Assembly: GCA_965263355.1 (NCBI GenBank) | Contig: CBDHHL010000048.1 | Coordinates: 230,017-294,016 of the forward strand | Origin: Leptolyngbyaceae cyanobacterium | GTDB lineage: Bacteria > Cyanobacteriota > Cyanobacteriia > Phormidesmidales > Phormidesmidaceae | DNA length: 64,000 nt | Reading direction: 5' to 3' | The notes under the pieces: model-generated | Told to the model about the DNA's origin: nothing | Database searches by the model: none | What the model saw: the letters and a program-made list of their open reading frames with translations, nothing else | Program-made: the position numbers and the translations under genes | In this document: one piece after another, positions 43,294 through 64,000 of the stretch | Position numbering within the stretch: position 1 is the stretch's first letter | How the letters are laid out: every line of letters starts with the position of its first letter

Positions 43294-43308
43294 TTACTAA
43301 ACCTAGCC

Positions 43309-45647: not shown

Positions 45648-45649
45648 CT

Positions 45650-46711: not shown

Positions 46712-46741
46712 GAGGAATGAATTTAGAGGGTAAGAGGGTAA

Positions 46742-46768
46742 TGGTTCCAGGCAGAGCCTGGGAACCAG
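46742..46768. repeat. REP-like hairpin downstream of VR2
   Basis: TGGTTCCAGGCAGAGCCTGGGAACCA; a related hairpin GTTCCCAGTCTCCGGCTGGGAAC lies at 44778-44800. Confidence 0.7.
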
Positions 46769-46781
46769 AAAGGGTAAAGGG

Positions 46782-47633
46782 TTACACAAGAGAGCCTGGG
46801 GGCGCACTCACAACTCGAAAACCGATATAGTTGTCGCGGTGGCCGGGCGGATGGTTGAAGCGACAGGCGGAGCGGCAAAACTCAGGAAAGTTGATCCAGG
46901 AGCCGCCGCGCAGGATGCGGATATTCGTCATTACCGTCAGTCATCCAGGCACTTCCATCTGTAGGCGCATTTCTTATAAGTTGTCATGCGAAATATCCTG
47001 GCACCATTCCCATACATTGCCATGCATGTCGCATAGGCCAAAGGCATTAGCTACATCAAAGTGATCAACTACAGTAGTTTCTTCTCGATATTCGCCTTTG
47101 GGGCCAGAACCATAGGAACCTGACCAGTTGTATTCTTCGCTGTCAGTGCCTCGGTAATTTGCTAAATCCGTCGTAATCGTTTCGCCAAAATGAAAGGGTG
47201 TTTTTGTACCTGCCCGACAAGCATATTCCCACTCGGCTTCGGTAGGGAGCCGGTAAGGACGGCCTGTATGGGCTGAGAGCCTTGCACAGAACTCCACAGC
47301 ATCGTCCCAAGATACCTTCTCCACAGGCCGATTAGCCCCCTTGAAACTGGATGGATCAACATCTAATTCCCGTTCCACCGGGGACATCTCCGCCACAGCT
47401 CGCCACTGGGCCTGAGTCACCAGATACCGCGCCATAAAGAACTGAGACACCCTCACCTCGTGCTGAGGGCCTTCGTTAGACTCACGCTTTAACTCATTCT
47501 CTGGAGACCCCATTAAAAACGTCCCTGCCGGGATACTCATCATCTCCAGGGGGCTCACCCCTGAGGCAATAGACTCTTCGTAATACTGGTTTTGCCCCTG
47601 ACTTTTGTTGATGGTGACAGCTTGAGCCTGCAT
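46782..47633 (-). pseudogene. DGR target 2: stand-alone FGE-sulfatase/CLec protein, interrupted as sequenced by three single-base duplications
   Basis: The ORF stops at WCQDISHDNL*. Removing an extra T, A and C in 46920-46980 restores HDNYKNAPTDGSAWMTDGNDEYRILRGGSW...[14 protein letters not shown]. May be intact in vivo. Confidence 0.8.
46796..46909 (-). repeat. DGR variable repeat VR2
   Basis: 114 nt; 12 substitutions against TR, all at adenines, with no indel. Confidence 0.95.
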
Positions 47634-47669
47634 AGTTGCAAAGGGTAAGAGGGTAAGAAGGGTAAAGGG

Positions 47670-50379
47670 CTACGGAAGAGAGCCTGGGGGCGCACTCACA
47701 ACTCGAAAACCGATATAGTTGAAGCGGTAGCCGGGCCGATCGTAGTATGCGACAGGCGGAGCGGCAAAACTCTGGAAGGCTGATCCAGGAGCCGCCGCGT
47801 AGGACACGTCTAGAGTTATTACCATCAACCATCCAGGCACTGCCATCCGTGGGCGCACCCCTGTAATTGTCATGCCAAATATCCTGACACCATTCCCAAA
47901 CATTGCCATGCATATCTGATAAACCAAAGGCATTGGCAATCTTGAATTCCGTTACTGAAGTCGTTTGCTCGCGATATTTTCCCTTAGGACCATTGCCGTA
48001 GGTATAGCCGCCATTGTAATTAGCAACTTCAGTCGTTAGGGTTTCGCCAACGTGAAACGGCGTTTTTGTCCCTGCCCGACAGGCATATTCCCACTCCGCT
48101 TCGCTGGGCAAACGATACAGACGTCCAGTGTCATTCGATAACCGTTTGCAAAACTCCACAGCATCTTCCCAAGAAACATTCTCCACAGGCCGATCAGCCC
48201 CTTTAAAGCCGGATGGCTCAGCCTTTAGCTCACAGTCCACCTGGGGCATCGCCGCCACCACTCGCCACTGAGCCTGAGTCACCGGATAGCGCCCCATCAA
48301 AAAGCCAGCAACCGTCACTTCATGCTGTGGCCCTTCACTGTCGATTCGGCTAAGCTCATCCTCTGGAGACCCCATCAAAAAGCGACCACTGGGAATCGCC
48401 ACCATCTCCAGCGAGATATCTGCCCCCAACTCTTCCAGAAATCGATAAGCCTGACCACGGGTCTTGGTCACCACCCAGCGCTGCCGCCGTAAAAAGCCTG
48501 TACGTTTACGCTCTAACGTCGCCACCTGACACTCAAACAGCTCCAGACCATCCCCAGGCAAACTCACCGTCGCAATCTCAAAGGTAGCCGTCTTTAACGA
48601 TGGATACTCAACCGTCGGCTCAGCCTCTGAGTCTACAAGCGTCCCTTTGGTAAACTCCAGTACCTCCAACGGTGGATAGTCAACCTTATTATCTGGAGCT
48701 AAAGACTGCACAACGGTTTCCGTCTCCACAGCTGCCACCAACTCTGCATACTGCCCCCCCAACCGCCGCAGGGCCTGCTTCGTCACATTGGCAAATTCCA
48801 AAAACTCACTGCCTGCGGTCTTCAGCTCCTCCTTCAGCCGCAGCAGCGCCATAAAGCTATAGATCGACTTACCCAGCTTGCTGCCAATATAGGCTGACAC
48901 TTCGTTCAGCACCTCCTCTGCCGAGTCTGTCCTGACCGTATCCACCAGCAGTTCCCGCACACCCTCCACAAACCGATAATGCCGTTGCTGATCAAACAAA
49001 CTCCCCTGAGAAACTCCCTTGGATCTATCGACTTCCCCAGCCTCAGGCTTTACCCGCTCAATCAGCCCACTTAAAAACACCTCCGCCACATGCAACGGCG
49101 ACGACTCTGGCAACAGCTTGGCCTGAATGATATACACCAGTGACAGCTCCACCGGCACCAACGCCATTAACGACGCCAACTCTCGGGCCGTTTGCGATGC
49201 CGTTTGACTAAATTGATTTACCAGCTGCTCAGCATAGTCTGGCTCAGTCTGGGTAGCCACGGGGCCAGCAGCCACCAGCTCTGGATCATCTACCTCATCC
49301 TCCAGTTCATCCAACGGATACCAAATGCCCGCCGTTTGGGTATCACCAAACCCAGCCAACACCCTAGCCCACTGAGCCATGGACGACGGTTCTAACGTAA
49401 TGATCGGCAGCTTTAGCCCTGGGCCATACTCCCGATGAAACTCCTGAGGTAGTGGGTCCACTAGCTGGGCATTGGTCCCCCCTGGCCCCCGTGCCGAGAA
49501 TGTGGTTTGTAACCCAGCCTCTAGGGCTGTACGGGACCACATGCGCGACGGCAGCATCTGCAAAATCGCCACGGGGCCATGTTTTGCCCATGGGTCCAGA
49601 TAGTAAGTCTGCAATTTTCCCCGCTGCCATGCGGTCGAAATGCAATCGCTAACCACCACGATCAACCGTCGCCCAGATGCATCGATCAGCCCCTTTGGAT
49701 CGCGGGGGCGAGGCATGGCTTCTGGCATCGGACGCTTAGCATACAGCGCTGTGGCACCACCGGCAGAGGTTTGCAAATACCACACCGTCACGGTACGAAA
49801 CGCTCCCTGCCGTTCTAACACCTGCTGAAAGTCACGAATCGTATCGCGCCACAAAAAGCTAGAGGCAGAATCTTCGACCACCAGGGCCAGTTCTAACCAT
49901 CGTTCTCGGGCAGGCTGCACCATGGTCATACAAAACTGACGCTCAGCCGTCTGTTCCGCCGTCGCCTCTTCATCCAACTCCGTTTGGGTGTAGGAGTCCA
50001 CTCGCCGCATCAAGGGCCGTAGTGAACGCCCCAAGGCCAACGTTCTGCGTAGGGCCGGAGACGTTGGTGTGGCAAACGGGATGCCCTTGTTAGGGGCTTT
50101 AGTTTTCTGAGTCTGAGTCTGTTGGGTTGTTTGACTGTAGAGAGAAAACTCAGCAGCTGAAGGCGGCGGCGCTGGCGGCGTATTATCGATCTCAATTTCG
50201 ACAGTCTCGTCAGGCTCTGACCTTGAGTCTGGTTCCTGCCTTTCCCCTGCTTCCGGAGCGTCAATGTAGCTCGTCAACCACAATAAGTCAGCAATATTCT
50301 CCCCATCCCAATCGATACCCGCATTTTTCACACGGGCAATCACTGTCGCCAAATTAGAAGAGAAATCCTGCTGTACCAA
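47670..50379 (-). CDS. DGR target 3: vWA-like (SAV_2336-type) N-terminal domain plus C-terminal FGE-sulfatase/CLec domain (+1 frameshift in its VR as sequenced)
   Basis: LGRSLRPL, LDEEATAE, LELALVVEDSAS (degenerate MIDAS) and IVVVSDCIS..W; full CLec motifs. Removing one base at ~47748 restores [14 protein letters not shown] at 47670. Confidence 0.9.
47684..47798 (-). repeat. DGR variable repeat VR3
   Basis: 115 nt; 12 substitutions, all at TR adenines, plus one insertion (AAC to ATAC). Confidence 0.95.
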
Positions 50380-50383
50380 TGGC

Positions 50384-51388
50384 CTAAGCCCCCGGCCCTG
50401 ACAATGGCTTCAGAATTTTTTGCAGCAGGTCACTATCAGCGGATAGATCCGGTGTCCCCTCTTGAAGTAATAAATAAATGGCATTGAGCAGTTGATCTGT
50501 CGCCAACGACTCACGATCTCGCTTCTCCACAAAGGCTTTGATCACCGGCTCCGCCTTCGTCAGCACGTCACCGTCTAATTTCGCCAAATGCCGTTGCACA
50601 ATATCCGCCAGTTCAGCCTCTGTCGGCTCACCCATATCCAACCGAATACAGCGCCGCAAAAACGGTGGTGGAAAATCCCGCTCACCATTGCTGGTTAAAA
50701 TCACAAACGGAAACGCATTACACTGCACCTGCCCCTTTTCAATGGTGGCCGTTTCATCCTCTTCAGCATAGGAGGTCCCCACATCCACTGTAGGTAGTAC
50801 TTCCTTAATGCGCTCCAGCTCATCAATCCGAAAGCGCCCTTCCTCAAAGGTATGGAGCAAATCATTGGGCAAATCAATATCGCTCTTGTCAATTTCATCA
50901 ATCAGCAACACCCGAGGTTTTTGGCTCCCTTTAGGCACCGGCAACAGTGCCGTACCCAACGGCCCCAAACGAATATATTTACCAATGGCCTTTAGCGCAT
51001 CGGCCCGATCTTTGGGTAGCTTATTAGTCTGGTCAAACTGAGAGTCTTGCAAGCGACCAATGGCATCGTAACTGTATAGGCCCTGCTTTAGGGTAGTACG
51101 TGTCGTAATTGGCCAGTAAAGCACTTCCCCCAGCTTTAGCTCATGGGCCACCGCATAGGCCAGCGACGTTTTACCCGTCCCCGGCTTCCCCGTAATCAAC
51201 AATGGCCGCCGTAGATAGAGCGCCGCATTAACCAGCTCTATCTGAGCCTCATGGGCCTTAAACGTGGTCCCCTTTTGCTCCTGATACTGATTTACATCCT
51301 GAAACGCTCGCCACCCTGGTGGAGGCGGCAAACGCTCTAGATCATCGTGGGGCTCTCCAGTCCCCTGATAGATTTTCCAAGAAGTCAT
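50384..51388 (-). CDS. MoxR-family AAA+ ATPase
   Basis: LPPPPGWR, AALYLRRPLL, Walker A GKPGTGKT, Walker B LLIDEIDK, TSNGER and FLRRC. Confidence 0.93.
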   Translation of the reverse strand: MTSWKIYQGTGEPHDDLERLPPPPGWRAFQDVNQYQEQKGTTFKAHEAQIELVNAALYLRRPLLITGKPGTGKTSLAYAVAHELKLGEVLYWPITTRTTLKQGLYSYDAIGRLQDSQFDQTNKLPKDRADALKAIGKYIRLGPLGTALLPVPKGSQKPRVLLIDEIDKSDIDLPNDLLHTFEEGRFRIDELERIKEVLPTVDVGTSYAEEDETATIEKGQVQCNAFPFVILTSNGERDFPPPFLRRCIRLDMGEPTEAELADIVQRHLAKLDGDVLTKAEPVIKAFVEKRDRESLATDQLLNAIYLLLQEGTPDLSADSDLLQKILKPLSGPGA

Positions 51389-53205
51389 AGTCTGGCAGCA
51401 GATAACTTAACATTTGGCGGCACTCGATTGGGATCATCCCACAAGATTGCTAAATGATGACCCAACTTTGGCGATTGAGCATATTCTGTCTCGGATTCTA
51501 AAGGAGGTGTATTACGCCGTATTTCTAACACTTTCTCAGGCACATCTTTTAGCGGATGAGAAAGTACCTGATTAAGCAGCTTTGGACTCCAGTCCTCTTC
51601 AGACTGGTTATTCCTCACCCAAACAGCTACAGGAATACCTTGCTTCGCCAGTAGTTGAGGATCGCTCTGGGAATTTAATGAACTTAACTTTTGAAACCCC
51701 ACAATCCCAGCATCTTTAAGGTTATCACTATCGGCAAACACCTTATGGGCGGACACCGTCGCTTTAGCGGACTTTAATTTCCATGTCTTTTTCCATCGAG
51801 CATTGGCCTTGAAACCACCCAGGTTAGAACGCTTTTGCAATGCCAAAATCACCCGCTGACAATCGTCACTGCCAATGCCTAATGGTTCATCTTCTAGCAT
51901 TAATCGCTCCCAAGGTTCATTGAGTAGTGAAGTTGGCAACACAAAGTACACAGTTAATTCACCCGGATCACACTCATCGTCTAACCCTCCACATAGTTGC
52001 ATTAGATAGCTTTCCAGCAAAATCGGTAAGTCACCATAAGCAACCTGATGCTCTGAAAGATGACCATAATTGTCATCTTCCGGAGAAAACAGGAGCCGAC
52101 GACTACCCTGCAAGGTCTGAGTGCTATATTTTTCAGGATCTAAAACAGCCCATGCTTCAACCGATAGGCTTTCTCGACTCGCATCCTCTTGAATATTGAC
52201 CAACAGCATCGGATCACGGGGTTCAACCTGTTGCTCTTGCCGCTTTGCTTTTTGTGCCTGCATCGCCGCTTTGGCAGATTCCAAGTCCTTCGCATATCGA
52301 CTGCCCCATTGATACAACCGCTCTCTTGGCTCTGCTAGTTGCTCTATCTGTTGGGCCTCTAGCTCTAGCACCAGGGCCGCTACAAATTGGACTAACTTAT
52401 CTTCTTCCTGATCAGCACCCGCCGTTGCATTCGCTAGCTCATCGATAATCTTGTGGGTTTCTCGCTGAACCGGAGTCACAGCATTTTGAGACCGACACAG
52501 ACCATAAGCCCGCTGAATAAAATTTAGAATATTTACCTCAGCAGCATCCAAGATATCCGTAAGAGTCTTACGCCGCAAGTAGTTCAGAGGCTCACGGAGT
52601 ACATCCTTAGGCATCATGTAAGCCAAGGTTACAGACTGCTGCTTATCCTTTTCAGCTGCAACTGTCATCCCCACGACAGCATTTAACTGTTCATCCCAGA
52701 TAGGTGAACCACTAAAACCCTGTTCCAGTGAACGATCTTGGCCCATTTTTGCATCTAACTGAACCCATCGTTTCCCAGTTTCACCCCGCAAGGTAGCCGT
52801 TGCCCAAACTCCGTCAGTATGACCTTTAGGAAAACCAAACACTCTTAGGGGATGTCCCCAAGCATCTGACGATGAAACTATTCCAACAGGCTCAGCATTA
52901 GCAGGTGCCGATGCCAATAACTTGAGCACAGCCATATCTTCTGAAAAGGCTGTCTTTGAAACTGGCAACCAGAAAACAACGGATGCCTCTACTTTTTGTC
53001 CTGGTGCTAGCAACGGCAAATCAAGCTGTACCGACTGATCAGGTATGGCCTCTGTATTCTCAGACAACGACAAAGCTGCCGCCACCACATGGGCACAAGT
53101 GAGCACATAACTCTCAGCTACCAAAAAGCCAGCACCGACGACATTGCCATTAGCGTGATACAACCTAACAACGGAAGACTTTAGCGGTTCTAAACGATCG
53201 GACAT
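51385..53205 (-). CDS. Trypsin-like protease fused to a vWA-MoxR-associated (VMAP-type) C-terminal domain
   Basis: Intact triad TCAHV / EDMAVL / GFSGSP; C-terminal FVLPTSLLNEPWE, GIPVAVWVR and LAILWDDPNRVPP; its stop overlaps the MoxR start (ATGA). Confidence 0.85.
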   Translation of the reverse strand: MSDRLEPLKSSVVRLYHANGNVVGAGFLVAESYVLTCAHVVAAALSLSENTEAIPDQSVQLDLPLLAPGQKVEASVVFWLPVSKTAFSEDMAVLKLLASAPANAEPVGIVSSSDAWGHPLRVFGFPKGHTDGVWATATLRGETGKRWVQLDAKMGQDRSLEQGFSGSPIWDEQLNAVVGMTVAAEKDKQQSVTLAYMMPKDVLREPLNYLRRKTLTDILDAAEVNILNFIQRAYGLCRSQNAVTPVQRETHKIIDELANATAGADQEEDKLVQFVAALVLELEAQQIEQLAEPRERLYQWGSRYAKDLESAKAAMQAQKAKRQEQQVEPRDPMLLVNIQEDASRESLSVEAWAVLDPEKYSTQTLQGSRRLLFSPEDDNYGHLSEHQVAYGDLPILLESYLMQLCGGLDDECDPGELTVYFVLPTSLLNEPWERLMLEDEPLGIGSDDCQRVILALQKRSNLGGFKANARWKKTWKLKSAKATVSAHKVFADSDNLKDAGIVGFQKLSSLNSQSDPQLLAKQGIPVAVWVRNNQSEEDWSPKLLNQVLSHPLKDVPEKVLEIRRNTPPLESETEYAQSPKLGHHLAILWDDPNRVPPNVKLSAARL

Positions 53206-53213
53206 CAGTCAGC

Positions 53214-53549
53214 CTACGACTGCCCTCCCCACTTAAGCGTCACCTCAAAAGTGACCTCACTACCCACGGAGCTAAATACTACACCCGCTTCTGCGCTTAA
53301 CTTCAAGCCAAAGGTAACCTCGACTTCATCAGCAGGCGTCGTTAAACCATCCTTCAACTTTGAAACCACCGTTGACGCAACAGGCTTAATCGCATCCAGG
53401 GCCTCATTTAAGTTTTTCTTGGCCTTATAGACCATTTCGGTCGTTTCGGTCAATGCTACGCGCTCAATAGCATTGGAGTTAGGCTCATCAATCTCAACGA
53501 GAAAAGGGGTCCCGTCTTCTAACGTGAACTGAGCTAAAGCTTTATCCAT
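53214..53549 (-). CDS. Trypsin co-occurring (Trypco1 / CU044_2847-like) protein
   Basis: FTLEDGTPFLVE, DEVEVTFGLKLSAEAGVV and FEVTLKW motifs; GAGGAG RBS; directly upstream of the trypsin gene. Confidence 0.82.
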   Translation of the reverse strand: MDKALAQFTLEDGTPFLVEIDEPNSNAIERVALTETTEMVYKAKKNLNEALDAIKPVASTVVSKLKDGLTTPADEVEVTFGLKLSAEAGVVFSSVGSEVTFEVTLKWGGQS

Positions 53550-53864: not shown

Positions 53865-54203
53865 TCACTCACCAAAGTTTTTGTCAATCTCAAATCCTTT
53901 AGATTGAGCCAAAAACACCTGATTAATTCCCCTCACAGTAGCGATGTCTTTTTCTACTGAGTCAAGGCGTCTCTCTAACTCTTTAAGCAGAATATTAGTG
54001 TGGTTACTCAGTGATTTATAATCTCGCTTGAGATGATTAATATCACGCTCTAACCCATAGCTATGACGAACCCTAGCAACAAAGAAGCCAATCACACCGG
54101 CTGCCGTTGAAAAAACTGTTATCGCTAACGGTAGATTCTCTATCAAAAATTTGTTCATGATGACTAAACGTAAAGGGCGATCCAAGATCGCCCTTTTTTC
54201 CAT
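53865..54203 (-). CDS. Single-TM plus coiled-coil protein (holin-like architecture)
   Basis: TM segment LPLAITVFSTAAGVIGFFVA followed by heptad repeats. Confidence 0.6.
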   Translation of the reverse strand: MEKRAILDRPLRLVIMNKFLIENLPLAITVFSTAAGVIGFFVARVRHSYGLERDINHLKRDYKSLSNHTNILLKELERRLDSVEKDIATVRGINQVFLAQSKGFEIDKNFGE

Positions 54204-54222
54204 GGGAGTTTCAAGGAATCAA

Positions 54223-54597
54223 CTATGCCGCGTGTTCTTCAGATTTGCTGGGGTGGACAAACCCGATTGAACAAATGTTGGCAGTCCCCTTGTTGTCTAT
54301 CTCAGACTTACAGGCTGGATAAACAACCGCCATCGGCGGAATACCCGATACATCATCTGTGAGCTTCCATCCTTCATGGGGTTGACAGCTCTCGACTTTG
54401 CAAGCTTCCGAATAAATGACGTTCCCACTGCTAACCTCTAGAATGCCCCATTTTCTATCTCCAACTGGCCTATCTTGCGAATGAATCAAAACATACTGGT
54501 CATAGGGCAGCTTTTCAAGCCACTGGCTAAAGTCAAGCTTTAATAGGTGACCCGGTTTTGGAATCGTGACCACGCCATTAACAATAGGTCTAATCAT
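54223..54597 (-). CDS. Hypothetical protein
   Basis: GGAGG RBS; part of a co-oriented gene string. Confidence 0.7.
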   Translation of the reverse strand: MIRPIVNGVVTIPKPGHLLKLDFSQWLEKLPYDQYVLIHSQDRPVGDRKWGILEVSSGNVIYSEACKVESCQPHEGWKLTDDVSGIPPMAVVYPACKSEIDNKGTANICSIGFVHPSKSEEHAA

Positions 54598-54611
54598 CGG
54601 CTATGGCCTCC

Positions 54612-55319
54612 TTACAGGGTATCAGGTACGTCTTCACCGTCACCACCACTGTCACCGGCTGGAGGTTCTGCAGGAGGCTGATCGCCAGATTCAGCATTAA
54701 CCTGATCTAAGGATGTTGGCAACACACAGTTAATCTGCAACCGTTGCTGAAAGGCCATATAGCCTGCCTGAACCGCATTATAGATATCGGTAACCGCTTC
54801 ACAGCGAATGGCATCCGCATCAAGGCCCAGGGAGTCCAGATCAATAGTCTCAAGCTGACCTTGCAAGGCAGCAATTTGTTGCCCTTGGGTCGCTTGAGTA
54901 GTCTGAATATTAGTCTGGTTAGTCTGCAAATTGGTGATCAGATCACCATGCTGATTAATTTGTTGTTGCTGGCTGTTATAGCTGCTTTCCAGCGCATCAA
55001 GGCGATCTTTAACCTGTTGCAGGTCATTAACGCCGTCGCCATCCTGGTCTTGCAGCGATTCAATCAGTTGTTGTAACTGTTGAACCTGAGCCGTAAACCC
55101 ATCCTGGTTAACCAGCGTATCTAGAACCGTTTGCATCGCTGCAAATTGTTCTAAGACGAATACGCGATCCGCCACCCGACCATCACAGATGGCCGTCTGT
55201 AAGGCTTCACCCATTTGGTCAAAGAATTGAGCAATATATGCCGGGTTCACACAGTCACCGTCTGGTGTGGTGTATCCTGTAAACCCTTGTGTGCCTTCAC
55301 CGTTCTGAACAGTAACCAT
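54612..55319 (-). CDS. Acidic Gln-rich coiled-coil (fibre-like) protein
   Basis: Long heptad region with a DQDGDGVND Ca-binding-like loop. Confidence 0.7.
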   Translation of the reverse strand: MVTVQNGEGTQGFTGYTTPDGDCVNPAYIAQFFDQMGEALQTAICDGRVADRVFVLEQFAAMQTVLDTLVNQDGFTAQVQQLQQLIESLQDQDGDGVNDLQQVKDRLDALESSYNSQQQQINQHGDLITNLQTNQTNIQTTQATQGQQIAALQGQLETIDLDSLGLDADAIRCEAVTDIYNAVQAGYMAFQQRLQINCVLPTSLDQVNAESGDQPPAEPPAGDSGGDGEDVPDTL

Positions 55320-55331
55320 AGGTCAAATTAG

Positions 55332-55925
55332 CTAAGTTTTCTTAAGAAACAAAAGTGAGCCATAGATCTCAGGCTCTACATTGGTGCGATAACCGAAACC
55401 CCACGATTTTGAGCGGTCTCGGTCACACCGCATCTCAGCCACAAACTGAGTCGGCTCAGTAACCGCCAGTAGTCCGCCCATGGGGATGTGCCAGCTGTAA
55501 TGCTCGGAATAAGTGCTGGCCCCATAAATCGGGGTGAGCGAGCCGCCCAGGGGTCTCAGACGGCATCGCATCCCCGAGTTTTCCATTCCCGTTAGCCAGC
55601 CGTTCACGACATAACGGCCCGATGGCAGTTCAATCCGGCCAGCGCTGGGGAATGGCGTAATGGAACCAAATTCATTTAACGGATCGGCATAATTAAACGG
55701 TCGTTCAATCCAGGTATTGGGTGGGTGAAAACTTCCCCCACTCTGGCCAGATGGCCGACGGATTTGAAAACTCGCCCAACTCACCGCCGCTAACGAATTA
55801 GCCCCATTGATGGACTCATGGGGAAACGCTCGATAGGAGGTGCCCCCACGAGCAACAAAGAATTGATCGCTTGCCTGAAACGGCATAGGTAACAACGGCA
55901 AGTCTGAGAAGTCAGTCCCACTCAT
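55332..55925 (-). CDS. Putative receptor-binding/spike protein (beta-sandwich, C1q/TNF-like)
   Basis: N-terminal FSDLP...DQFFVARGGTSYR resembles fibre attachment motifs; SGGSF...W..R..N, IELPSGRY and GFG....EIYGSL resemble phage fibre-tip domains (recognised from memory). Confidence 0.55.
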   Translation of the reverse strand: MSGTDFSDLPLLPMPFQASDQFFVARGGTSYRAFPHESINGANSLAAVSWASFQIRRPSGQSGGSFHPPNTWIERPFNYADPLNEFGSITPFPSAGRIELPSGRYVVNGWLTGMENSGMRCRLRPLGGSLTPIYGASTYSEHYSWHIPMGGLLAVTEPTQFVAEMRCDRDRSKSWGFGYRTNVEPEIYGSLLFLKKT

Positions 55926-56428
55926 GGAAAAACGATCAAGTCTCCGAAAAATGTAAACTCTTCTGTTGGTAAAGAATCCCCAACTCCAAACAAAATCAAC
56001 CCCGTCTCTTGTTCGTTTGCGTCTGAGAACACGTCTGGTAATTGTTTAGCCCATATCTCGATTTGATAATCCGTTAGCCAGGTATGGGGCCAAAACTCAA
56101 AGTAGTAGCTAAACCCATCACCCGTAAACGAAAAATACTGATTATCTAGATAGACCCGTTCTACTTGCTTGCGTGGTGATGCAATCGGCGTACCACGCAA
56201 GCTTTGAACAAAATATCCCGCCCGCTTCCAGCCACGGTCAGCCCCTATGCGTGAACTAATTTTCACCAGCACACTGGCTGATAAAGACAGCTCAAACGTG
56301 AACAACTTCCCCCTAGCTGCATTGGTGTAGTAAGTCGTTAATCGCTCAAACGTATCTGATAACAACGTTGAGGTAAATACACCGAAGTAAGACGATGGAT
56401 ACAAGACCGGACCATAACGGCCAGACAT
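55922..56428 (-). CDS. Hypothetical beta-rich protein
   Basis: Coupled to both neighbours (ATGA and TAATG overlaps); WKRAGY...YYFEFWPHTW...IEIW. Confidence 0.7.
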   Translation of the reverse strand: MSGRYGPVLYPSSYFGVFTSTLLSDTFERLTTYYTNAARGKLFTFELSLSASVLVKISSRIGADRGWKRAGYFVQSLRGTPIASPRKQVERVYLDNQYFSFTGDGFSYYFEFWPHTWLTDYQIEIWAKQLPDVFSDANEQETGLILFGVGDSLPTEEFTFFGDLIVFP

Positions 56429-56763
56429 TAGTTATAGGAACGATTGAGAACACGGTACACGTATTCCACTTTGCCGAGTCCCGTAACATTTTTACCGACA
56501 ATAGACTTTAAAGCATTATCCACTTTGCCAGCAGCACAATAAACATAGCCTCTAGCCTTGCGCCTCTTGGTATCCCGCTTAGACCCCCGTAGCCCTAGCT
56601 TGATAACCGCTCGTTTTGCAGCTTCCCCAGTCAGAATATTATTTTTACTGGTTGTTGTTTTTGCACCAACAATAGACCCTAGGGTCTTGTAAATATCTGG
56701 CTTAAGTGACAATGCAGCTGCCGAATTGTTGAAATCGAAATAATACGTTTTAAGTTCTGCCAT
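56428..56763 (-). CDS. Small basic protein
   Basis: K/R-rich (RGSKRDTKRRKAR), 111 aa. Confidence 0.7.
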   Translation of the reverse strand: MAELKTYYFDFNNSAAALSLKPDIYKTLGSIVGAKTTTSKNNILTGEAAKRAVIKLGLRGSKRDTKRRKARGYVYCAAGKVDNALKSIVGKNVTGLGKVEYVYRVLNRSYN

Positions 56764-56797
56764 CGTTCATCATCTCAATAAAATTGTTCAAACTGAC

Positions 56798-57031
56798 TTA
56801 AGACAGATACTCATCAGCTGTATACGTGATAGCCCCTGCTGCTCCCGATAGTGTGGTGGGCAGCGTCAGGGCAACGGCCACCGTACTCGCTTCGGTGTCT
56901 GGAGTAATCGTGATGTTATTCAACGGAATTTCATCAGTCGATTGAGTCGCCTCAGCTGCCTGAATCGCTAAGGCAATTTCTAGGGCCTGACCTTCTAGGG
57001 TCGTTGCTGTGGTTGTAATTGCAGCCGCCAT
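56798..57031 (-). CDS. Small Ala/Thr-rich protein (candidate virion subunit)
   Basis: Strong AAGGAG RBS; helix (TLEGQALEIALAIQAAE) followed by beta-strands. Confidence 0.7.
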   Translation of the reverse strand: MAAAITTTATTLEGQALEIALAIQAAEATQSTDEIPLNNITITPDTEASTVAVALTLPTTLSGAAGAITYTADEYLS

Positions 57032-57162
57032 AAGTCTCCTTGATAAGTAATCGTTGATTCAAAAAAATTGGCTGCTTTATCAATGCCCCAAATGGTTATC
57101 AGACTGGGCATTCTGGCAATACGTTTGTCCCTTCCACCCTAGGGTAGAAGGGTATATGAAAC

Positions 57163-57378
57163 ATGTCCAAAAAAATTGCTCGATTGTGGATAGATGAGCA
57201 TCATTCAATCCGTAGCTTGAATGATGCCAGAAAGGCCGGATTAATGTTTATCAACACAAAAGAATATGCTAGACGTGAGCATATTCACGTACGCACGGCA
57301 CGCCATAGAGCTAAGCAAGGCAAGGTCAGAGCCGAGAAATTTAAGGGTGAATGGTTTTTTTTAGTTAAAGGCGTTTGA
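57163..57378 (+). CDS. Excisionase-like HTH DNA-binding protein
   Basis: INTKEYARREHIHVRTARHRAKQGKVRAEK..GEWF pattern. Confidence 0.7.
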   Translation: MSKKIARLWIDEHHSIRSLNDARKAGLMFINTKEYARREHIHVRTARHRAKQGKVRAEKFKGEWFFLVKGV

Positions 57379-58029
57379 TCCACTTGGGAATAGTATCTAG
57401 ATCTTCGTCAAATTTTTTCACCAACTTAGCTTCAACCCTAATCACTTTAAGGTTTCTATTACTGTTCTCTGTATAAACTGGCTGACTACCCGGAATAAGG
57501 TAGCGACTATCAATGAGAGTCTCACAGTAGTTTAAAACCTTGCGCCCCTCAGCTTTGCTGTTAGCATTGAGCACTACGCTAGATCCATCTCGTAGCGTTA
57601 GCGTACAAGTCACATTTCCCTTAGTGAATTGAGGAAAGCGAAAATTATAATTATCTCTAATTCCATCTTTTGGATGAGGAATATACATCTTCCATCGAGA
57701 ATATCGCTTGGTGCCCGATACAGGCCCCCACTGAACAAGTAATTGACTTTGATCCCGTAGCTTGTAAGTCCCCTTTTTAACTCCCATATCATGGGGATTG
57801 ATGGCTCTTCTAGCCCACGACCACGGACCAAAAAATATAAAAACATACGGCATAGCGCCATCGGTGCCGTGTCGTTGTCTTTGATCAAGCAGGCATACCG
57901 TAAAGCACTTTCAGGGGTGCTAATGGTATCGTCTGGGATGCCATCTCTAAAATCGTCACGAACAACCCGGTTATACAGTCGCATTAACACCGACTGCAAA
58001 AATTCCCATTCATTCCCCGGTGCTGGCAT
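57365..58029 (-). CDS. Hypothetical protein split by a single frameshift
   Basis: ORFs 57610-58029 and 57365-57853 join into one ~221-aa protein if one base is added near 57785 (...IPMIWGVKKGTYKLR...). Confidence 0.6.
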
Positions 58030-60839
58030 TTACGCGCCCCCCACAGATGGATCATCTAGGTTGTGGGGAGCTTGAGACGCTGCCTTACTAACCGCCTCTG
58101 CCTCCGTCAACGGCTCAGACCATGGATCATCGACTAATTCACCTTCGGTCTTGATAGCGGCCCTCAGCTCGGCTCTCTGCTCCTGTAGCTCATTTGAAAC
58201 CTCTTGGATGCTGACTAGCTCATCAGCGACCAGGCCAACGGCGCTAACCGCCTCGTCCGCTCGGTCAATGCGATTACTGAGTGCTTCCCAGCGCTTGCCC
58301 GTTTGATACACCCGATCAAACCGCTCAGACATCGCCCCATAGGCATTTTCTAACACCGTGCCAGACCGCCGCAAAGCATTACCGATCCTAGCCACATTCT
58401 GGCCGATGGTTTCTACAATCATTTGACCACTATCAAAAATTGACCACATCGACCAGTAGAGGTTGCTAGCCGCCTGGTAGATTCGATTTGCCCGTGTCAA
58501 CGTTGCCGCTATCTCTTCCCGTTTGGCTTCCCCAATTGCCCGATCAATCGCCGATGTAATTAACTCAGAGATTTTCTCACTAACTCCAATTGGGTTTCCT
58601 TCAGAGTCTTCTAAGTGTAGCCCAAACAATCTCATAACAGAATCAATCGCCCATCCTGCCGTTTCTGCCAGCTCTCGGCTCAGAAAATACGCATTGTGCA
58701 AATTCATCGCAAAGTTTGCCACCGCTAACAGTCGATCAATCTGCAAAAAGTCCCAGGTCTTTTTAGTCAGCGTTTGGATCGTGTTTACAACAGTCGCTGT
58801 AGTTGTCACAATGCCTGCTGTTGCCGTCGTCGTCGTATCAATTTTAGCAAGCAAGCTTAGATCAGGAATATCATTAAGCTTGTCTGATAGCCGTTTTTCT
58901 AATCCACTAAGCGCATTATCAGTATGGGCATTTATTCCCCCATTGCAACCACAACCAGATCCTTTAGTTGTTACTGGGGGATTCGTTTTAACACCTTGTT
59001 TTGGTGGATTTAATGCATTGGTACGATTTGGCAAAGCTGGCATAGCTAATGCCGGTATAAAATTAGAAAAACTTACAGAATCTGTACCTGAGTTCTGTAA
59101 ACGTTGCAGTAATTTGTCATGAATAGAATCGCCTGAATCAGAAGCATTCCCTAATTTTCTTTCGCTTTGTTTACTAGGGTTAGTAGGATCAGGAGTATCA
59201 AAAAAGTCAGGATTAATTCTATTATCTTGAGCTGTGTTATTACTTGGAGGGGGTGATGTTTTGTTGTTATTTAATCCATGCTTATTCGGGCTATTAGAAT
59301 TTTGATTATCCCCACTAGAATTTCCCCCAGATTGTAAACCAGCTTTTCTTGCATTATTTCTATCTTGATTATTTATATTATCTGCTTGGTCTTGAGTTGG
59401 TAAATTGTTGGGTGCATCATTTGGAGATTTATCTAAATCTTTTGCAGGATCATAACCGGTAGGTTCGTCTTTACCATCACCATCTTTATCTGGATTTGGT
59501 GATAAATCTGGCAAATCGCTAGGTGGTGGAAACCTTGCAGGATTACCGTCTTTTTCATTTGGATCTACACTACCGTTGTTATCACCTTCGTTATCTAACT
59601 CAATTACGTCTTCAATCTCTAAACGCATATCAATACGTTCACTGTTACTTGTTCCTGTTCCCGCAATAATATTTCTAATCGCAAAAGGCTCAAAGTGATT
59701 ACTAGCTCCATCGGGGGATGTAACGCCTATATATTTATGATTACCACCACTTGAATATGTAACAGTACCAATAGGGCCTCTTGCAACAATACTATCTGTT
59801 CCTAAATCAATCCAACCTTCATCTGCCCTTGAATGGGGCTCCATATATCTTCTATGTGTACGATATAGAACATAATAATGTTTGCTATCGTCACCGTAAG
59901 TATCATCACCAACAATATCTCCCGGTTGTTTTTTAGCAGAAGATTTAGGAGCAACTGCTTTAGTATCGTTTCCTGGATTTCTACCTAATAAACTATTTAA
60001 GTGGTCCCCAACACTAGGGCCAAAAGGTTTACCAATAGCCCCATAGATTTTATCTCCTAAAAATAAACCACCACCTAATGCAGCTGTACCTAAAGCAGCA
60101 ACTACACCAGCTGGATTTGCTGCAACAGGAGCAAACAAACCACCCCCAGCACCGGCAGCACCAGCACCGGCAGCACCGGCAGCACCTGCTCCTTTAGTTT
60201 TTGCCAATATAACTGTACCCGTAGCTTGAGTTATAGCTTGAGCACCTTGCTGTTTTGCAAATTGACCAGGACTTGTTGTTGTTCTAGGTGCTGATGTTGT
60301 TTTATTGGCTGCAGCATTCCACCGTTGAATTGCTGAACTTCTTTGTCCTGGTGTATAAGCATTATTTACTGTTGCCGTTCCTGAGTTACTAGCTACATTT
60401 CCTCTTGTACTACCAAAATTATTTATATTCTTAGCAGCTTGTGTTGTTCCTCTTGGGCCAGAGGTTGACGTTCTATTTCCAGAGGAAGCCTGTTGTTGTC
60501 GGTGAAAATTAAGACTTCTATTTAATGCATTAGATATCCCACCTTGTTGTGTTTGTGCTGGGGAAGGCGGTTTTAAGTTTAAAGGTTTCCTTATATTTAG
60601 TTGTTGTGGATTCCTAGTTCTTAAAGTTAAGGAACCTGATTCTTTATAAGGTAAAGGATTACTTGTATTTGTGCTAGGAGATCTTTGTAACTGGAACCCC
60701 CTCCTCCTCTAGATTGCACACCATAATTAGGACTGCTTAAATCCCCTGAAGTAATTCCAGAATTACTATTTTTATAGTACTTAGCTGCGTATTCATTCAA
60801 AAGAGTAGTTGCATTACCGGGGGAATAAAGAGTAGGCAT
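58030..60839 (-). CDS. Large (~936 aa) low-complexity/helical protein, candidate adsorption or DNA-pilot protein; one frameshift near 60700
   Basis: The frame of ORF 58030-60207 is open back to 60708, and one extra base in the C5 run 60697-60701 joins it to ATG 60839. Contains a Gly/Ala hydrophobic segment, a Pro/Asp/Asn spacer, GCGC and a helical C-terminus. Confidence 0.7.
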
Positions 60840-60880
60840 AGCGTATAACTAAATAGTAGTAACAAATAAGGAAGCAAGTT

Positions 60881-60979
60881 ATGTATTTCTTATTTGGCGC
60901 GTTATTTTACACGGCACTGTTTTTAGTCTTGCAACTATGGGCACGTCGTTTATGGAATTGGCATAAAAAAGACAAATAA
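60881..60979 (+). CDS. 32-aa hydrophobic peptide
   Basis: Not in the ORF track. TAAGGA RBS, MYFLFGALFYTALFLVLQLWARRLWNWHKKDK*, followed by a hairpin at 60982-61010. Confidence 0.6.
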   Translation: MYFLFGALFYTALFLVLQLWARRLWNWHKKDK

Positions 60980-61022
60980 AAAGTAGGGGGCATTTGTTGC
61001 TTCCCCTACTGAATCTGCTTAT

Positions 61023-61337
61023 TTAAGTTGGTTGTAAATACTCTGGGGGAATAACTCCGGAATAGTAAGGTTTTGTTGCACTCCAAAGATTGTCATAAGA
61101 TCCCGTAGAATAGTCTGGTTGTAACCTTAAGTTTGCTCGAATTGAAGCAAACATTTCTTTATCGTAATTTCTAAAAACTGATTGTTGAACACGCTCTACG
61201 CGTATTCCCTCTGCCTCATTGTAAGTTTCACCGTTGTTCATATATTCCAAAGTGAACATAGCCCAAGCAGTTAAACTTTCTAAGCCGTTTACAAAAGCAC
61301 TATCAGGGATCTGTTCGCGGGTGATGACGATGGTCAT
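61023..61337 (-). CDS. Hypothetical protein (candidate virion subunit)
   Basis: 104 aa; IP...LESLTAWA..L...N...RV.Q...R..L.L..DY....LW...IP; co-oriented with the structural-like block. Confidence 0.7.
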   Translation of the reverse strand: MTIVITREQIPDSAFVNGLESLTAWAMFTLEYMNNGETYNEAEGIRVERVQQSVFRNYDKEMFASIRANLRLQPDYSTGSYDNLWSATKPYYSGVIPPEYLQPT

Positions 61338-61643: not shown

Positions 61644-62072
61644 ATGACAGACCCTTTAACGGCAGCATCAATTGCAACGCTCATCTTTACGACAGCGGTT
61701 GGCAAGCTTACTGAAGCGTTGACTGAGGATGCACGTAAGCAACTAGGTCAAAAGTTACAGGCCTTGAAACAGCTCATTGGTAATAAGTTTCAAGGTAAGG
61801 CTAAATCGGCGCTAGCCAGTGCTGAAACAGGTGACAAGCAGGCTATTGATAGGTTTTCCAACCATCTGGGTGTAGCGATGGATCTTGATGATGAGTTTGA
61901 CCAGCAGGTGAGGACACTGGCGCAGGATATCCAACAGATGCTCATCAGCATCGATCAGTCGCAAGGGCAAAATATTCAGAATGTATTTGACGGTGGCAAA
62001 GGAACCCAGGTAAATCACTCGACGGGAACTACGATCACGGGTGACAACAATACAATCCACGTTGGCCCTTGA
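61644..62072 (+). CDS. Bell-like helical protein with C-terminal N/Q/G/T-rich amyloid-like motif
   Basis: MTDPLTAASIATLIF hydrophobic first helix, helical body, tail QGQNIQNVFDGGKGTQVNHSTGTTITGDNNTIHVG; directly upstream of an NB-ARC gene. Confidence 0.65.
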   Translation: MTDPLTAASIATLIFTTAVGKLTEALTEDARKQLGQKLQALKQLIGNKFQGKAKSALASAETGDKQAIDRFSNHLGVAMDLDDEFDQQVRTLAQDIQQMLISIDQSQGQNIQNVFDGGKGTQVNHSTGTTITGDNNTIHVGP

Positions 62073-62108
62073 CCAGAGTCGCCGAGTGCAGGCTCGTCAA
62101 AGTCAACC

Positions 62109-64000
62109 TTGCAAAGGGGGGTACCCCGTCAGGCAGAAAAGCTGCCCCCTAACTACATCCCTCGGCCAAGGCCGTTTAATGCGGTCAAGACTCTTCTACT
62201 AAATGGCACAGACACCGCCACCAGTACCCTGGTGGTGAGCGCTATTTATGGTTTAGGCGGCATTGGTAAATCAGTCTTAGCCGCTGCCCTCGCTGCCGAT
62301 ATCGAGATTCAAGAGCGATTCCCTGACGGCACTCTCTGGATCACCCCTCGGGCAAAACCCTGACCTACTGCCGATGCTGGGCAGCTGGATCCAGGCACTG
62401 GGGGACTATAAATATCAGCCGCTAACACCGGATGCAGCGTCATCCCATCTGCGGACTCTGCTCTACGACCGTCAGATGCTGCTGATCGTCGATGATGTCT
62501 GGAATCCGGCCCATCTGGAACCGTTTCGGGTGGGCAATCAGAATAGCTGTGTCCTGGTCACCACGCGGGGGGCTCCGATTTCTGGGGCGAAAAAGTATGA
62601 CCTGGATGTGATGACGCCAGACCAGGCGATGGAGCTACTCACACACCAGCTCTCAACGCCACTCACCCCAGAAGACCAGCAGCTGGCCGCTGCCTTTGCC
62701 AAACGGGTGGGCTATTTACCCCTGGCGTTAGAGCTGGCCACCGCTCAAATTGAAGAAGACCTGTCTTGGGACGAACTACTCACCGACTACCAGACTGAGG
62801 TAGAACGCTTGGACGTCCTTGATAAGGTGTGTAAAGACGACATCCCCGACGATGAAATTCGACGAAAGTATAGCCTGATTGCCTGCTTTAATCTCAGTCT
62901 CAAAAGTCTCACCCCAGACCAACAAACTTACTTTGCTTGGCTGGGAGTGCTGCCTGAGGATGCTGATATTACCAAGCGTATGGCAAAGACCCTCTGGCAA
63001 CTCACAGCGCGGCAGGCGGGCAATGTATTAAAGGCATTTCGCACTAAAGGACTGCTTAAAGGAGAACGACCCACTTACCGACTCCATGACTTGATGCATG
63101 ATCTGGCTGTGCAGCTATTAAGGGGGCCTGTACACCCCGATGGAGAGGCCTTAAAAGGGTTAGGTAAACCCTTGCCCGATGCCCATCAGCACTTATTAGC
63201 ACTCTATCAACAACAAACCAATAATCACCAATGGCACACCCTGGAGGATGACGGTCACATCTATGACTATCTCACCTGGCACATAGAACAATCTGAGTGT
63301 CCACACCTCATCCATCAACTCTTTCAAGAAACCACTGATAAGGGGCGTAATGGCTGGTACGAAGCCTGTGAGCGTGTTGGTAAACCCGGTCTCTTTGCCA
63401 GCGATTTGGCCCGTGCATGGCAACTCACGCTCAACACCCCATTAACGGCCAACGACATTATTCCCCTACAGGTCCGCTATGCCTTTATTCGGGCGTCTCT
63501 GAATAGTCTGGCCGACAATATTCCGGCCCCGATGGTCAGTGGTTTACTGAAAGTCGGCCTATGGCAACCGGCCCAGGCCCTAGCCTATGCGCAACAAACC
63601 TACAATCCCTGGCGACGGGCTGAATATCTCATGGCGTTGGTGCCCCATATGCCTCGGGCGCTATTGCCTGAAGTTTTGGCACTGTTAGAACAGATTAATT
63701 CTCCGGCCTATACCAGTATTGTTTTATCGAAACTTGCCCCCGACTTTCCTGAATTATGGCCCAGGGTGCTAGAAACCATTGCCCAGATTCGTGATGTGAT
63801 CGGTGACTTCAACAGATCCAGAGCAAAGGGGTTTTCCTATCGGGCCTTGGCATTAACTAAAATACTCTCTGATTTACCCGCTAACTATCTTCCCGACGCT
63901 ATCGAGATCACACGAACCATTCAATCTGACTATGACCGCGCCAGAGCCCTGAGTGCGATGGCCCAACACCTGCCTGAACTCTGGGAGCAAGCCATCGACA
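62109..64000 (+). CDS. NB-ARC (STAND) NLR-like protein with helical repeats; +1 frameshift near 62345; truncated by the window end
   Basis: Walker A GLGGIGKS. After removing one C from the C4 run the frame continues WITLGQNP...LLIVDDVW (Walker B), VLVTTR, GYLPLAL, YRLHDLMHD and stays open to 64000. Confidence 0.88.

Follow-up and report, generated by a model that had tools for sequence, protein, structure and literature searches.

Within the window analysed here, a stretch of 64,000 nucleotides of cyanobacterial DNA, a module of ten genes is found on the minus strand from 61337 to 53865. These genes encode, in order, a 104-aa protein, a large protein and proteins of about 221, 77, 111, 168, 197, 235, 124 and 112 aa. 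The gaps from the 104-aa gene to the 112-aa gene are 183, 0, 333, 34, -1, -4, 12, 14 and 19 nt, where the 333-nt gap houses a plus-strand gene. This layout agrees with a previous sequence-only reading, which described ten mostly co-oriented and tightly packed genes. The features are as follows.

61023..61337, minus strand: 104-aa protein, first gene of the module and main shell candidate (predicted fold and predicted homo-oligomer)
58030..60839, minus strand: large protein (936 aa if in frame) with a frameshift near 60700, candidate DNA-delivery protein (family HMM c0, E 1e-36)
57365..58029, minus strand: hallmark c1-family gene (about 221 aa) with a one-base frameshift near 57773 (homology of both parts)
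57163..57378, plus strand: 71-aa basic HTH-like gene within the module (phrog_66, E 0.06; family k35 in 9 loci)
56798..57031, minus strand: 77-aa acidic Ala/Thr-rich protein, candidate second shell protein (strong ribosome-binding site, AAGGAG, upstream)
56428..56763, minus strand: 111-aa basic protein (pI 10.2), candidate DNA-condensing nucleoprotein (family k30, profile match 96%)
55922..56428, minus strand: 168-aa conserved beta-rich protein, jelly-roll-like by pattern only (family HMM c2, E 7e-8)
55332..55925, minus strand: 197-aa beta-rich protein, putative variable receptor-binding slot (weak match to family c48, E 0.02)
54612..55319, minus strand: 235-aa acidic coiled-coil protein, putatively fibre-like (weak coiled-coil matches; G055 copy 93% identical, dN/dS 0.08)
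54223..54597, minus strand: 124-aa accessory protein, fold unassigned (G055 copy 93% identical, dN/dS 0.13)
53865..54203, minus strand: 112-aa transmembrane and coiled-coil protein, putatively holin-like (family HMM c12, E 9e-18)

None of the module ORFs was found to have a significant match in Pfam or PHROGs, the best being that of the 235-aa coiled coil to a PHROG listed as unknown (E 9e-4), and the labels 'pilot-like' and 'spike-like' given earlier to module proteins should be read as inferences. The 112-aa protein is the only one in the module with a clear membrane segment (hydropathy peak of 2.0 at residue 24). Its gene usually lies at the end of the module and is followed in L052 by an amidase. 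The slot of the 197-aa gene carries LamG or F5/8 domains at other loci, and members of family c48 match the tail fibre profile phrog_24210 (E 2e-12 and 2e-15). The 168-aa slot is occupied in 43 of 55 and 36 of 51 loci; from its sequence this family looks like a beta sandwich, and a profile search of PDB sequences returned no match for it. A basic gene at the 111-aa position was observed in 45 of 55 and 40 of 51 loci.

The large protein consists of a low-complexity N-terminus, a Gly/Ala hydrophobic segment, a Pro/Asn-rich linker and a conserved helical C-terminus, and its plasmid homologs are 33-34% identical. In the c1-family gene, the N-terminal part shares 43% identity with a 272-aa plasmid protein (P0008) and the C-terminal part aligns to a domain which in G055, L102, L108 and others forms part of the large protein. 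The protein of about 936 aa reported earlier has that length when in frame and is not a single ORF in the window: 60839..58030 spans 2810 nt, one base below 936 codons plus a stop, where the ATG frame runs for 70 aa before a stop and a frame of 892 aa then continues. The c1-family gene (58029..57365, 665 nt) is also one base short, which was missed by the earlier reading. Both frameshifts fall within or beside short base runs. A base is added at 57773 in contigs from three of the four public runs compared (X1, X3 and X4), a frame-restoring indel is found at 60697-60699 in contigs of runs X1 and X3, and in the relative G055 the N-terminal part of the large protein lies in a single frame. Because near-identical public copies lack them, the two frameshifts arose, as far as the sequences tell, either as errors of assembly or as mutations private to this copy.

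The surrounding element and its relatives

The remaining features of the element lie on both sides of the module.

37179..37254, plus strand: tRNA-Pro(GGG), integration site, attL side (att-bounded relatives at the same tRNA)
37258..38493, plus strand: tyrosine integrase with Arm DNA-binding domain (PF00589, E 5e-13; phrog_1, E 8e-53)
38508..38852, minus strand: excisionase-like HTH protein (phrog_66, E 3e-4; L099 homolog, E 2e-8)
39084..40475, minus strand: prim-pol type replication protein (PF09250, E 5e-4, under the curated cut-off)
40746..41238, plus strand: two XRE/HTH regulators (Pfam and PHROG matches)
41470..43701, plus strand: five small early-region genes (98, 187, 138, 126 and 130 aa), four of which recur in related elements
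43837..53549, no strand assigned: cargo, with a DGR, three FGE-sulfatase-type target genes, MoxR AAA, trypsin-VMAP and Trypco1 (Pfam)
Within the cargo, DGR parts: template repeat near 45.0-45.1 kb, bAvd at 45258-45647 and RT at 45650-46711
61644..64000, plus strand: 142-aa gene and an NB-ARC-like gene which exceeds the window, probably more cargo (G055 homologs adjoin the module)

The integrase, primase-type replicase and XRE genes, which the sequence-only reading placed on one element with the module, are present at 37.3-41.2 kb. That they form a single element is inferred from two observations: in G037, att repeats at this tRNA-Pro site enclose the same gene set, and the window has no HIP1 site at all beyond 43.8 kb, whereas 37 kb of host DNA contains 17. 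The segment 61644..64000 contributes zero sites in 2.4 kb, where about one would be expected. A search for attR within the window returned none and the right att site lies outside. The element includes about 10 kb of DGR and conflict genes, and the whole copy holds at least 12 kb of cargo; this cargo-laden copy may be less fit than its smaller relatives. Between the DGR template and its target, 37 of 39 mismatches fall at adenines. The window element places a cyanobacterial DGR on a prophage-like element; in the available text of a DGR survey, no cyanobacterial DGR was assignable to such an element (PMC7517822).

The synteny search across cyanobacteria suggested earlier recovered the module family with conserved gene order in 56 named loci. 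In one order, 49 of the 172 genomes contain the family, which is also found in many Nostocales. Complete att-bounded elements at tRNA genes measure 10,065, 10,243, 10,977, 11,094, 11,912 and 14,714 bp, where those of 11,912 bp (L108) and 14,714 bp (G037) occupy the same tRNA-Pro site as the window copy, and complete relatives overall span 9-18 kb. In G082, one element is found both integrated and as an 18,288-bp contig which is 100% identical, circularly permuted and joined at a 50-bp attP. Excision to a circle was therefore seen in relatives (att repeats and both forms in G082) and not in the window copy; since an excised circle is apparently present in at least one genome, particles can be sought directly. 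Furthermore, L189 is a 10.4-kb circle bearing the module and a prim-pol gene without an integrase match, and two complete plasmids also bear the module. Homologs of the prim-pol protein occur in the complete elements L102, L115, L131 and L099 and in the L189 circle (44% identity). Integration at tRNA 3' ends, circle excision, a primase-type replicase and conserved order are thus shown for the family at the level of sequence. No locus of the family was returned from IMG/VR and no match was found in INPHARED, and therefore standard prophage tools probably miss it.

Relatives carry accessory genes with tail-fibre or minor-tail domains (366 aa in L151, E 2e-11), LamG and F5/8 domains and endolysin-like Amidase_3 genes. 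The best-supported fibre domains are found in relatives and are absent from the window copy. Only 6 of 55 loci and 3 of 51 have an amidase or M15 peptidase, M15 peptidases adjoining the module in 3 of 51, and no lysin was seen within the window. Several early-region genes of the family encode membrane proteins.

The two frameshifts and the absence of attR from the window would fit a decayed piece of a larger tailed prophage, with head and tail genes lost or lying outside the window. However, near-identical copies are free of the frameshifts and, in comparison with G055, five module genes have dN/dS of 0.08-0.17 (the sixth has saturated dS), which shows purifying selection on the module for the family as far as codon comparison goes. 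Complete att-bounded or circular relatives also share the module and leave no space for head genes; as an example, the only three ORFs of at least 250 aa in L102 are the large protein, prim-pol and integrase. Canonical head or tail genes just beyond the window, which the earlier reading named as evidence against a new virus type, are excluded at the family level by the complete 9-18 kb relatives. Decay from a tailed prophage is thus extremely improbable and largely refuted for the family.

Comparison with known viruses and mobile elements

The reported lack of a terminase, portal, HK97 capsid and Zot/pI ATPase was confirmed with PHROGs and Pfam in the window and in complete relatives. Of 140 proteins from 8 complete elements, none matched a head or packaging PHROG at E <= 1e-5. 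The only head-category matches in the window are cross-matches of XRE/Xis HTH proteins to small-terminase profiles and a coiled coil at E 0.02. Tail tube and hub profiles gave no match, and Zot in Pfam gave none. The complete elements share no packaging ATPase, whether of A32/FtsK type or of any other kind. ORFs of at least 120 aa from the window element and from eight repeat-bounded elements were scanned for a Walker-A pattern, which overlooks degenerate motifs, and three carried it (a 423-aa protein in L108, a primase-helicase in L134 and the window MoxR).

With neither capsid nor packaging motor recognised, the element might be a helper-dependent satellite, packaged by the head of a helper cyanophage, where the module would supply its own tail-tip, fibre and ejection parts or block helper assembly. 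Fibre domains in relatives and weak tape-measure matches of two large proteins (E 9e-5 and E 8e-6) are consistent with this, but the two modelled core proteins returned no tail-tube, hub or baseplate match and the same module occurs on an integrase-free circle and on plasmids. At least five orphan genes are ordered alike in members of two orders and are accompanied by holin-like genes and in some cases by lysins, which is more than satellites are known to require. The backbone is of phage-satellite type, and the fibre domains suit a satellite equally. As far as the available text describes tycheposons and PICIs, the family resembles them in its tRNA-targeted tyrosine recombinase, excisionase, primase-type replicase, XRE regulators, small size (9-18 kb) and cyanobacterial host. 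That text reports a major capsid protein or small terminase in PICI-like tycheposons and extra cargo as never seen (10.1101/2020.12.28.424599); in contrast, neither protein was found with PHROGs in the complete elements of this family, whose orphan operon comprises five to ten genes, and the window copy has cargo. A satellite is, on balance, unlikely.

Alternatively, the element could move by cell contact or membrane vesicles, with the module forming a DNA-transfer or surface apparatus and no virion. The hosts are filamentous, the early region of L108 encodes a 423-aa membrane-anchored P-loop protein, several early-region genes of the family are for membrane proteins, and tycheposons are described in the available text as vesicle-enriched (10.1101/2020.12.28.424599). 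However, most complete elements, such as L102, lack the P-loop gene, and no relaxase or secretion-system family was found with Pfam among 94 proteins from 47 recurring clusters. Phage fibre domains and endolysin-like amidases also point to a free particle and lysis. Such transfer is quite improbable.

Filamentous phages (Inoviridae and other Tubulavirales) have small temperate genomes of variable length, a Zot/pI ATPase, a transmembrane major coat and HUH-type replication. The module family is similar in its small variable-length temperate genomes and in its several small, putatively structural genes with one large low-complexity protein. It differs in lacking a conserved Zot/pI ATPase, in its soluble, acidic 104-aa and 77-aa proteins and in its primase-type replication, holin-like and lysin genes. 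A transmembrane coat protein of inovirus type was rejected, as the peak 19-residue hydropathy is 0.72, 1.44 and 0.67 for the 104-, 77- and 111-aa proteins. Microviridae were also rejected, as the replicases are prim-pol or primase-helicase rather than HUH and no microvirus profile was matched. Tailless double-jelly-roll prophages (PM2-like) are temperate, measure 10-18 kb and have variable spike genes, all of which are shared by the family. In contrast to these, no double-jelly-roll capsid was recognised by profile, the predicted model of the 272-aa hallmark protein has three helices and an alpha/beta domain rather than an all-beta double jelly roll, and no packaging ATPase is conserved.

The archaeal Portogloboviridae pack circular dsDNA without an ATPase and have a basic nucleoprotein and small beta-sandwich proteins. 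By this description they may serve as the nearest working analogy, although the module family is bacterial-hosted, has an integrase and primase backbone and showed no sequence link to them. Heterocyst nif-interrupting elements are described in the available text as integrase-bearing, precisely excising, proposed cryptic prophages with many hypothetical genes (10.1101/629832). The family resembles them as integrase-bearing cyanobacterial elements with hypothetical genes, whereas the window copy sits at a tRNA and that text describes no structural module for nif elements.

The 104-aa protein and a possible particle

The opening gene of the operon was observed to be the 104-aa protein or a positional substitute, and 61 of 71 genes of its family, which comprises 490 clusters at 50% identity, have a co-oriented ORF of at least 500 aa within 400 nt downstream. 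Its predicted fold (pLDDT 92) combines a helix with beta strands, and comparison with the PDB gave nothing above Z 2.6 (rmsd 3.0, 47 aligned). Predicted self-association reached a complex score of 0.81 against 0.00 for the best control. In the calibration, which used two copies only, 20 of the 30 solved pairs and 1 of the 23 single chains came up to the mark. At least 90% of contacts are common to the runs, and partner pLDDT is at least 86. The score rests mainly on one large two-fold interface and contacts with the other two copies are small. No module protein could be tied to known capsids by sequence or structure.

Both the 77-aa and the 104-aa proteins had been proposed as capsid candidates. 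The 104-aa protein is the better of the two, given its operon-opening position, lack of a structural match and predicted self-association; the 77-aa family is not universal, with a 77-aa-like slot occupied in 20 of 51 loci. Other elements have a 167-aa version of the 77-aa protein that is duplicated in tandem (profile match 88%).

Capsids with a new fold are seldom found, and descriptions of temperate viruses from filamentous cyanobacteria are few. The ten genes are probably the particle-forming part of a small excising mobile element that filamentous cyanobacteria commonly carry. As to the uncharacterised temperate virus proposed earlier, the analysis recovered a family of elements that is maintained, excises and replicates, that has neither the head genes of tailed phages nor an ATPase of inovirus type, and whose particles are putative. 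We consider the chances evenly divided that this is a temperate, self-packaging virus of undescribed type, known here from its genes and predicted models. A more specific version is possible but somewhat doubtful: a widespread, undescribed autonomous lineage whose coat consists of dimers of a new-fold protein of about 100 aa and forms, with no packaging motor, around circular DNA that proteins have condensed. The particle might be filamentous or flexible, with a size that tracks the genome (9 to >26 kb), and the lineage would also ferry DGR and conflict systems between hosts.

In such a virus, the module would be the late, particle-forming operon of a temperate lineage which infects filamentous cyanobacteria and does without an HK97 head, without a terminase/portal motor and without an extrusion ATPase of inovirus type. 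An XRE switch would set off excision and replication. The 104-aa dimers, together with the 77-aa protein where present, would build a shell or helical coat, and the basic 111-aa protein would condense the DNA, which would let coat and genome assemble together with no need of a motor. The 168-aa beta protein would anchor variable receptor-binding proteins (197 and 235 aa in the window copy), the large protein and the c1 protein would deliver DNA to the next cell, and the 112-aa membrane protein would aid release. A single fixed icosahedral shell is hard to reconcile with the element sizes, because these span a minimum of 9 kb, at least 26.7 kb for the window copy and 37 kb for plasmid pHT582-1. 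Natural tandem duplicates of the 104-aa family were also observed (P0169, P0262 and P0263).

Genes of the module and the surrounding element

The ten packed and co-oriented genes described in the sequence-only reading were borne out, as ten minus-strand genes lie between 61337 and 53865 and mostly abut, with a 71-aa plus-strand gene occupying the sole large gap. Pfam and PHROG scans gave no significant match for any module gene. Profiles of relatives were observed to match the window proteins, with E-values of 5e-12 (104-aa), 1e-36 (large), 7e-8 (168-aa) and 9e-18 (112-aa).

Two of the genes are interrupted. The large gene (60839..58030) spans 2810 nt, one base too few for an intact frame, and the gene behind it (58029..57365, family c1, whose hallmark member has 272 aa) likewise lacks one base at 665 nt. 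Of four public runs, three have contigs with an extra base at 57773 and two have contigs with an indel at 60697-60699 which restores the large-gene frame. The 936-aa protein proposed earlier was thus the right reconstruction, but the given sequence holds no such ORF. In the relative from genome G055, the N-terminal half of the large protein is a single frame. In two runs the module had greater contig depth than the cargo, contig depth being no measure of copy number.

The surrounding element, at a tRNA gene, is arranged as follows.

37179-37254: tRNA-Pro(GGG), then genes for a tyrosine integrase, an excisionase-like protein and a prim-pol, and a pair of XRE genes
43.8-53.5 kb: cargo, comprising a DGR with three targets, MoxR, trypsin-VMAP and Trypco1
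61337..53865, minus strand: the module

No attR was found in the window by a 14-mer search with two mismatches and short BLAST. The 37 kb of host DNA contain 17 HIP1 sites and the early region contains 2; from 43.8 kb to the window end there are none. The element size is therefore given as at least 26.7 kb, with the right side open. The tRNA was the only match in an Rfam scan of the window. A 27-bp inverted repeat at 40641-40695, flanked by the prim-pol gene and the two XRE genes, is possibly an operator or origin. Just outside attL, a host M15-type peptidase gene (35872-37050) clusters with the module-adjacent peptidases of three related loci (L125, L136, L141).

The DGR within the element (43837-50379) is complete, and 37 of the 39 mismatches between template and targets fall at adenines. 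Each of its three target genes changes frame in or near its variable region:

43837-44727: DGR target gene
46723-47633: DGR target gene
47494-50379: DGR target gene

The template-target alignments contain one or two gaps each, and the frame changes are either assembly error or a result of retrohoming. Among 51 related loci, 5 have a DGR reverse transcriptase adjoining the module (L091, L138, L140, L142, L144), whereas in PMC7517822 no cyanobacterial DGR could be assigned to a prophage.

Distribution and gene order of the family

The first matches of the large protein were two complete plasmids of Nostocales cyanobacterium HT-58-2 (L001 and L002), both ParA/ParB plasmids with module genes; the 37-kb plasmid has the complete module and the 15.6-kb plasmid only the large and 274-aa genes. 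The 272-aa protein has 348 relatives at E <= 0.001 and yielded 56 loci with exclusively cyanobacterial titles. Synteny across cyanobacteria had been proposed as a check, and clustering revealed one gene order recurring over these loci:

Start: 101-aa gene (or two 110-aa genes), large gene, 272-aa gene, basic 180-195-aa gene
Continued: small acidic gene, 160-aa beta-rich gene, variable beta-domain genes, membrane-plus-coiled-coil gene

The 104-aa family forms 490 clusters at 50% identity. Of 172 genomes from the order that includes genome G001, 49 have a member. In a phylum-wide sample of 401 genomes at least 7 do, a lower bound since no more than 12 candidates were scored in each.

The 77-aa and 111-aa genes of the window belong to a subtype, with ten loci for each, in which the large protein usually carries, as a fusion, the domain that forms the C-terminus in the 272-aa family. 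A profile link (54%, E 1e-4) connects this fused domain with the Nostocales domain. The window copy is a mosaic of a Nostocales-type junction between the large gene and the c1 N-terminus with a subtype-type C-terminal domain. Profile comparisons did not join the 104-aa, c9, c11 and 77-aa families to one another (probability below 3%). They also gave no link from the basic families k22 and k30 to c3/c6 or from the 525-aa family to c1; the terms 'paralogous shell proteins' and 'equivalent slots' rest on position and pattern.

Some elements (L091/L092, L050) have a module divided into divergent halves, with the 104-aa and large genes in one direction and the 77-aa, basic and beta genes in the other; in G055 a small HTH gene lies between the halves. 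In 10 loci (family k32) the module is followed by a protein that has a membrane anchor at its C-terminus and a domain labelled FHA-like from its sequence pattern:

L102:8740-9333: FHA-like protein
L151:505-1119: FHA-like protein

Complete elements, excision and maintenance

Eight relatives are bounded by direct repeats at tRNA ends or by other repeats.

Complete relatives, with length and boundary
L102: 10,065 bp; direct repeats, tRNA-Cys
L134: 10,243 bp; direct repeats, tRNA-Met
L131: 10,977 bp; direct repeats, tRNA-Cys
L115: 11,094 bp; direct repeats, tRNA-Met
L108: 11,912 bp; direct repeats, tRNA-Pro
G037: 14,714 bp; direct repeats, same tRNA-Pro locus as the window element
L050: 8,952 bp; repeats not at a tRNA
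L045: 13,856 bp; repeats not at a tRNA

Canonical head and tail genes just beyond the window had been named as a finding that would speak against a new type of virus. We scanned 141 proteins against PHROGs (E <= 1e-5), namely 117 of 143 element ORFs, 23 from the element of genome G082 and one from L106, leaving out 21 ORFs of L045 and five doubtful short ones. Integrases, primase-helicases and regulators were matched, as were an excisionase, an HNH nuclease, a single unknown family and a single fibre protein, with one weak match to a tape-measure protein; no match was to a head or packaging family. L102 has no space for such genes.

The G082 element occurs in two forms, one integrated in the chromosome at tRNA-Cys and the other a contig of its own of 18,288 bp, 100% identical, circularly permuted and joined at a 50-bp att core (L151/L100/L153). 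This is most simply read as an excised circle that was abundant enough for separate assembly, the alternative being an assembly artefact. Another member, L189, is a 10.4-kb circle with a 123-bp terminal repeat and the whole module, the only one of 30 whole metagenome contigs checked with terminal repeats. Its prim-pol is 44% identical to that of the window, and it gave no match to integrase profiles. The large protein of L189 has collagen repeats, and a 217-aa gene is exonuclease-like by its sequence pattern. Contig G055:C9, considered as a circular copy of an integrated element, proved not to be one.

Integration, excision and a circular form are established for relatives. Against G055, dN/dS was 0.08-0.17 for five module genes, with dS saturated for the 104-aa gene. 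The element family is active and maintained, which together with complete elements free of head genes contradicts descent from a decayed tailed prophage and makes that origin highly improbable. The module is real, maintained and mobile and fits no virus or satellite family tested.

Predicted structures, particle-type genes and a possible life cycle

Structure prediction with Foldseek had been suggested for every ORF; the check was limited to two core proteins, the 104-aa protein and c1, and neither model found a convincing match. The 104-aa model (pLDDT 92) has a long helix, then four strands and a C-terminal arm. Its best PDB match among 48,161 representatives has Z 2.6 (rmsd 3.0, 47 aligned), far under the 7-8 that is typical for unmatched models, and BFVD gave nothing below E 0.5. 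The low PDB Z suggests a new fold but does not prove one. Modelled as four copies, the protein reached a complex score of 0.81 against 0.00 for the best control. In a calibration with two copies only, 20 of 30 solved pairs attained the mark, as did 1 of 23 single chains. The runs share at least 90% of their contacts, with partner pLDDT of 86 or more. The predicted interface is a large two-fold dimer via the helix, strand 62-72 and Trp85, with two more copies touching slightly. Natural tandem duplicates of the 104-aa and 77-aa proteins agree with a predicted dimer as the unit. A tandem form is labelled glucose-6-phosphate dehydrogenase-6-phosphogluconolactonase in one source, which no profile supports.

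The model of the 272-aa c1 member (pLDDT 87) consists of three helices and an alpha/beta domain. Its best PDB match has Z 5.6 (rmsd 3.5, 59 aligned, helices only), Foldseek against PDB gave nothing below E 0.1, and BFVD gave one unnamed match (E 4e-4, rmsd 17). In comparisons with the whole model, its C-terminal domain recurrently matched 2H-phosphoesterase structures (Z 4.4-4.9, rmsd 4.4-6.2, 112-124 aligned), too weakly for an assignment. PDB profile searches with family alignments A1, A2 and A3 (the 168-aa family) gave nothing below E 0.1, and neither the 104-aa protein nor a basic protein of 179 aa had a usable match in ESM Atlas.

In relatives, the variable slot of the module contains LamG, F5/8 and phage fibre domains, and the module usually ends with the membrane-plus-coiled-coil gene. 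In two sets of loci, many of them cut by contig ends and the second selected via the 104-aa gene, a basic protein follows the core in 45/55 and 40/51, and an amidase or M15 peptidase occurs in 6/55 and 3/51, directly behind holin-like genes in L052. The fibre, holin-like, lysin-type and basic genes are accessories of an extracellular host-binding particle, but they leave the shell's owner undecided. The backbone and fibres fit a helper-dependent satellite; PICI-like tycheposons carry capsid or small terminase genes (10.1101/2020.12.28.424599), whereas this family has neither, and we consider a satellite rather unlikely. Transfer by contact or vesicles is less probable still: a P-loop gene in L108 would suit it but is absent elsewhere.

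A temperate virus with a motor-free, co-assembled coat of 104-aa dimers has, in our estimate, an even chance of being correct. An XRE switch would control such a virus and the primase would drive replication; a basic nucleoprotein and the dimer coat would co-assemble without a motor, the variable beta proteins may bind the receptor, the large protein may deliver DNA and the holin-like protein may aid release. Given how widely element size varies, a filament or flexible coat is favoured over a fixed icosahedron, or else large copies are no longer packaged. Virus status of the element family is likely, if unproven.

IMG/VR scans with the large-protein C-terminus and the c1 and 77-aa alignments yielded no locus, including for one C-terminus stretch that passed tblastn, and neither the large protein nor P0008, the 272-aa plasmid member, had a tblastn match in INPHARED. 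Literature searches brought up no description of the module, though supplementary tables of unannotated prophage regions could hold members; passages of PMC12691664 and PMC8597652 concern a sheath-bearing element and lytic podoviruses respectively. In a related element (L013:1445-5053), the primase-helicase was observed to be fused to a DpdA domain (7-deazaguanine DNA modification).
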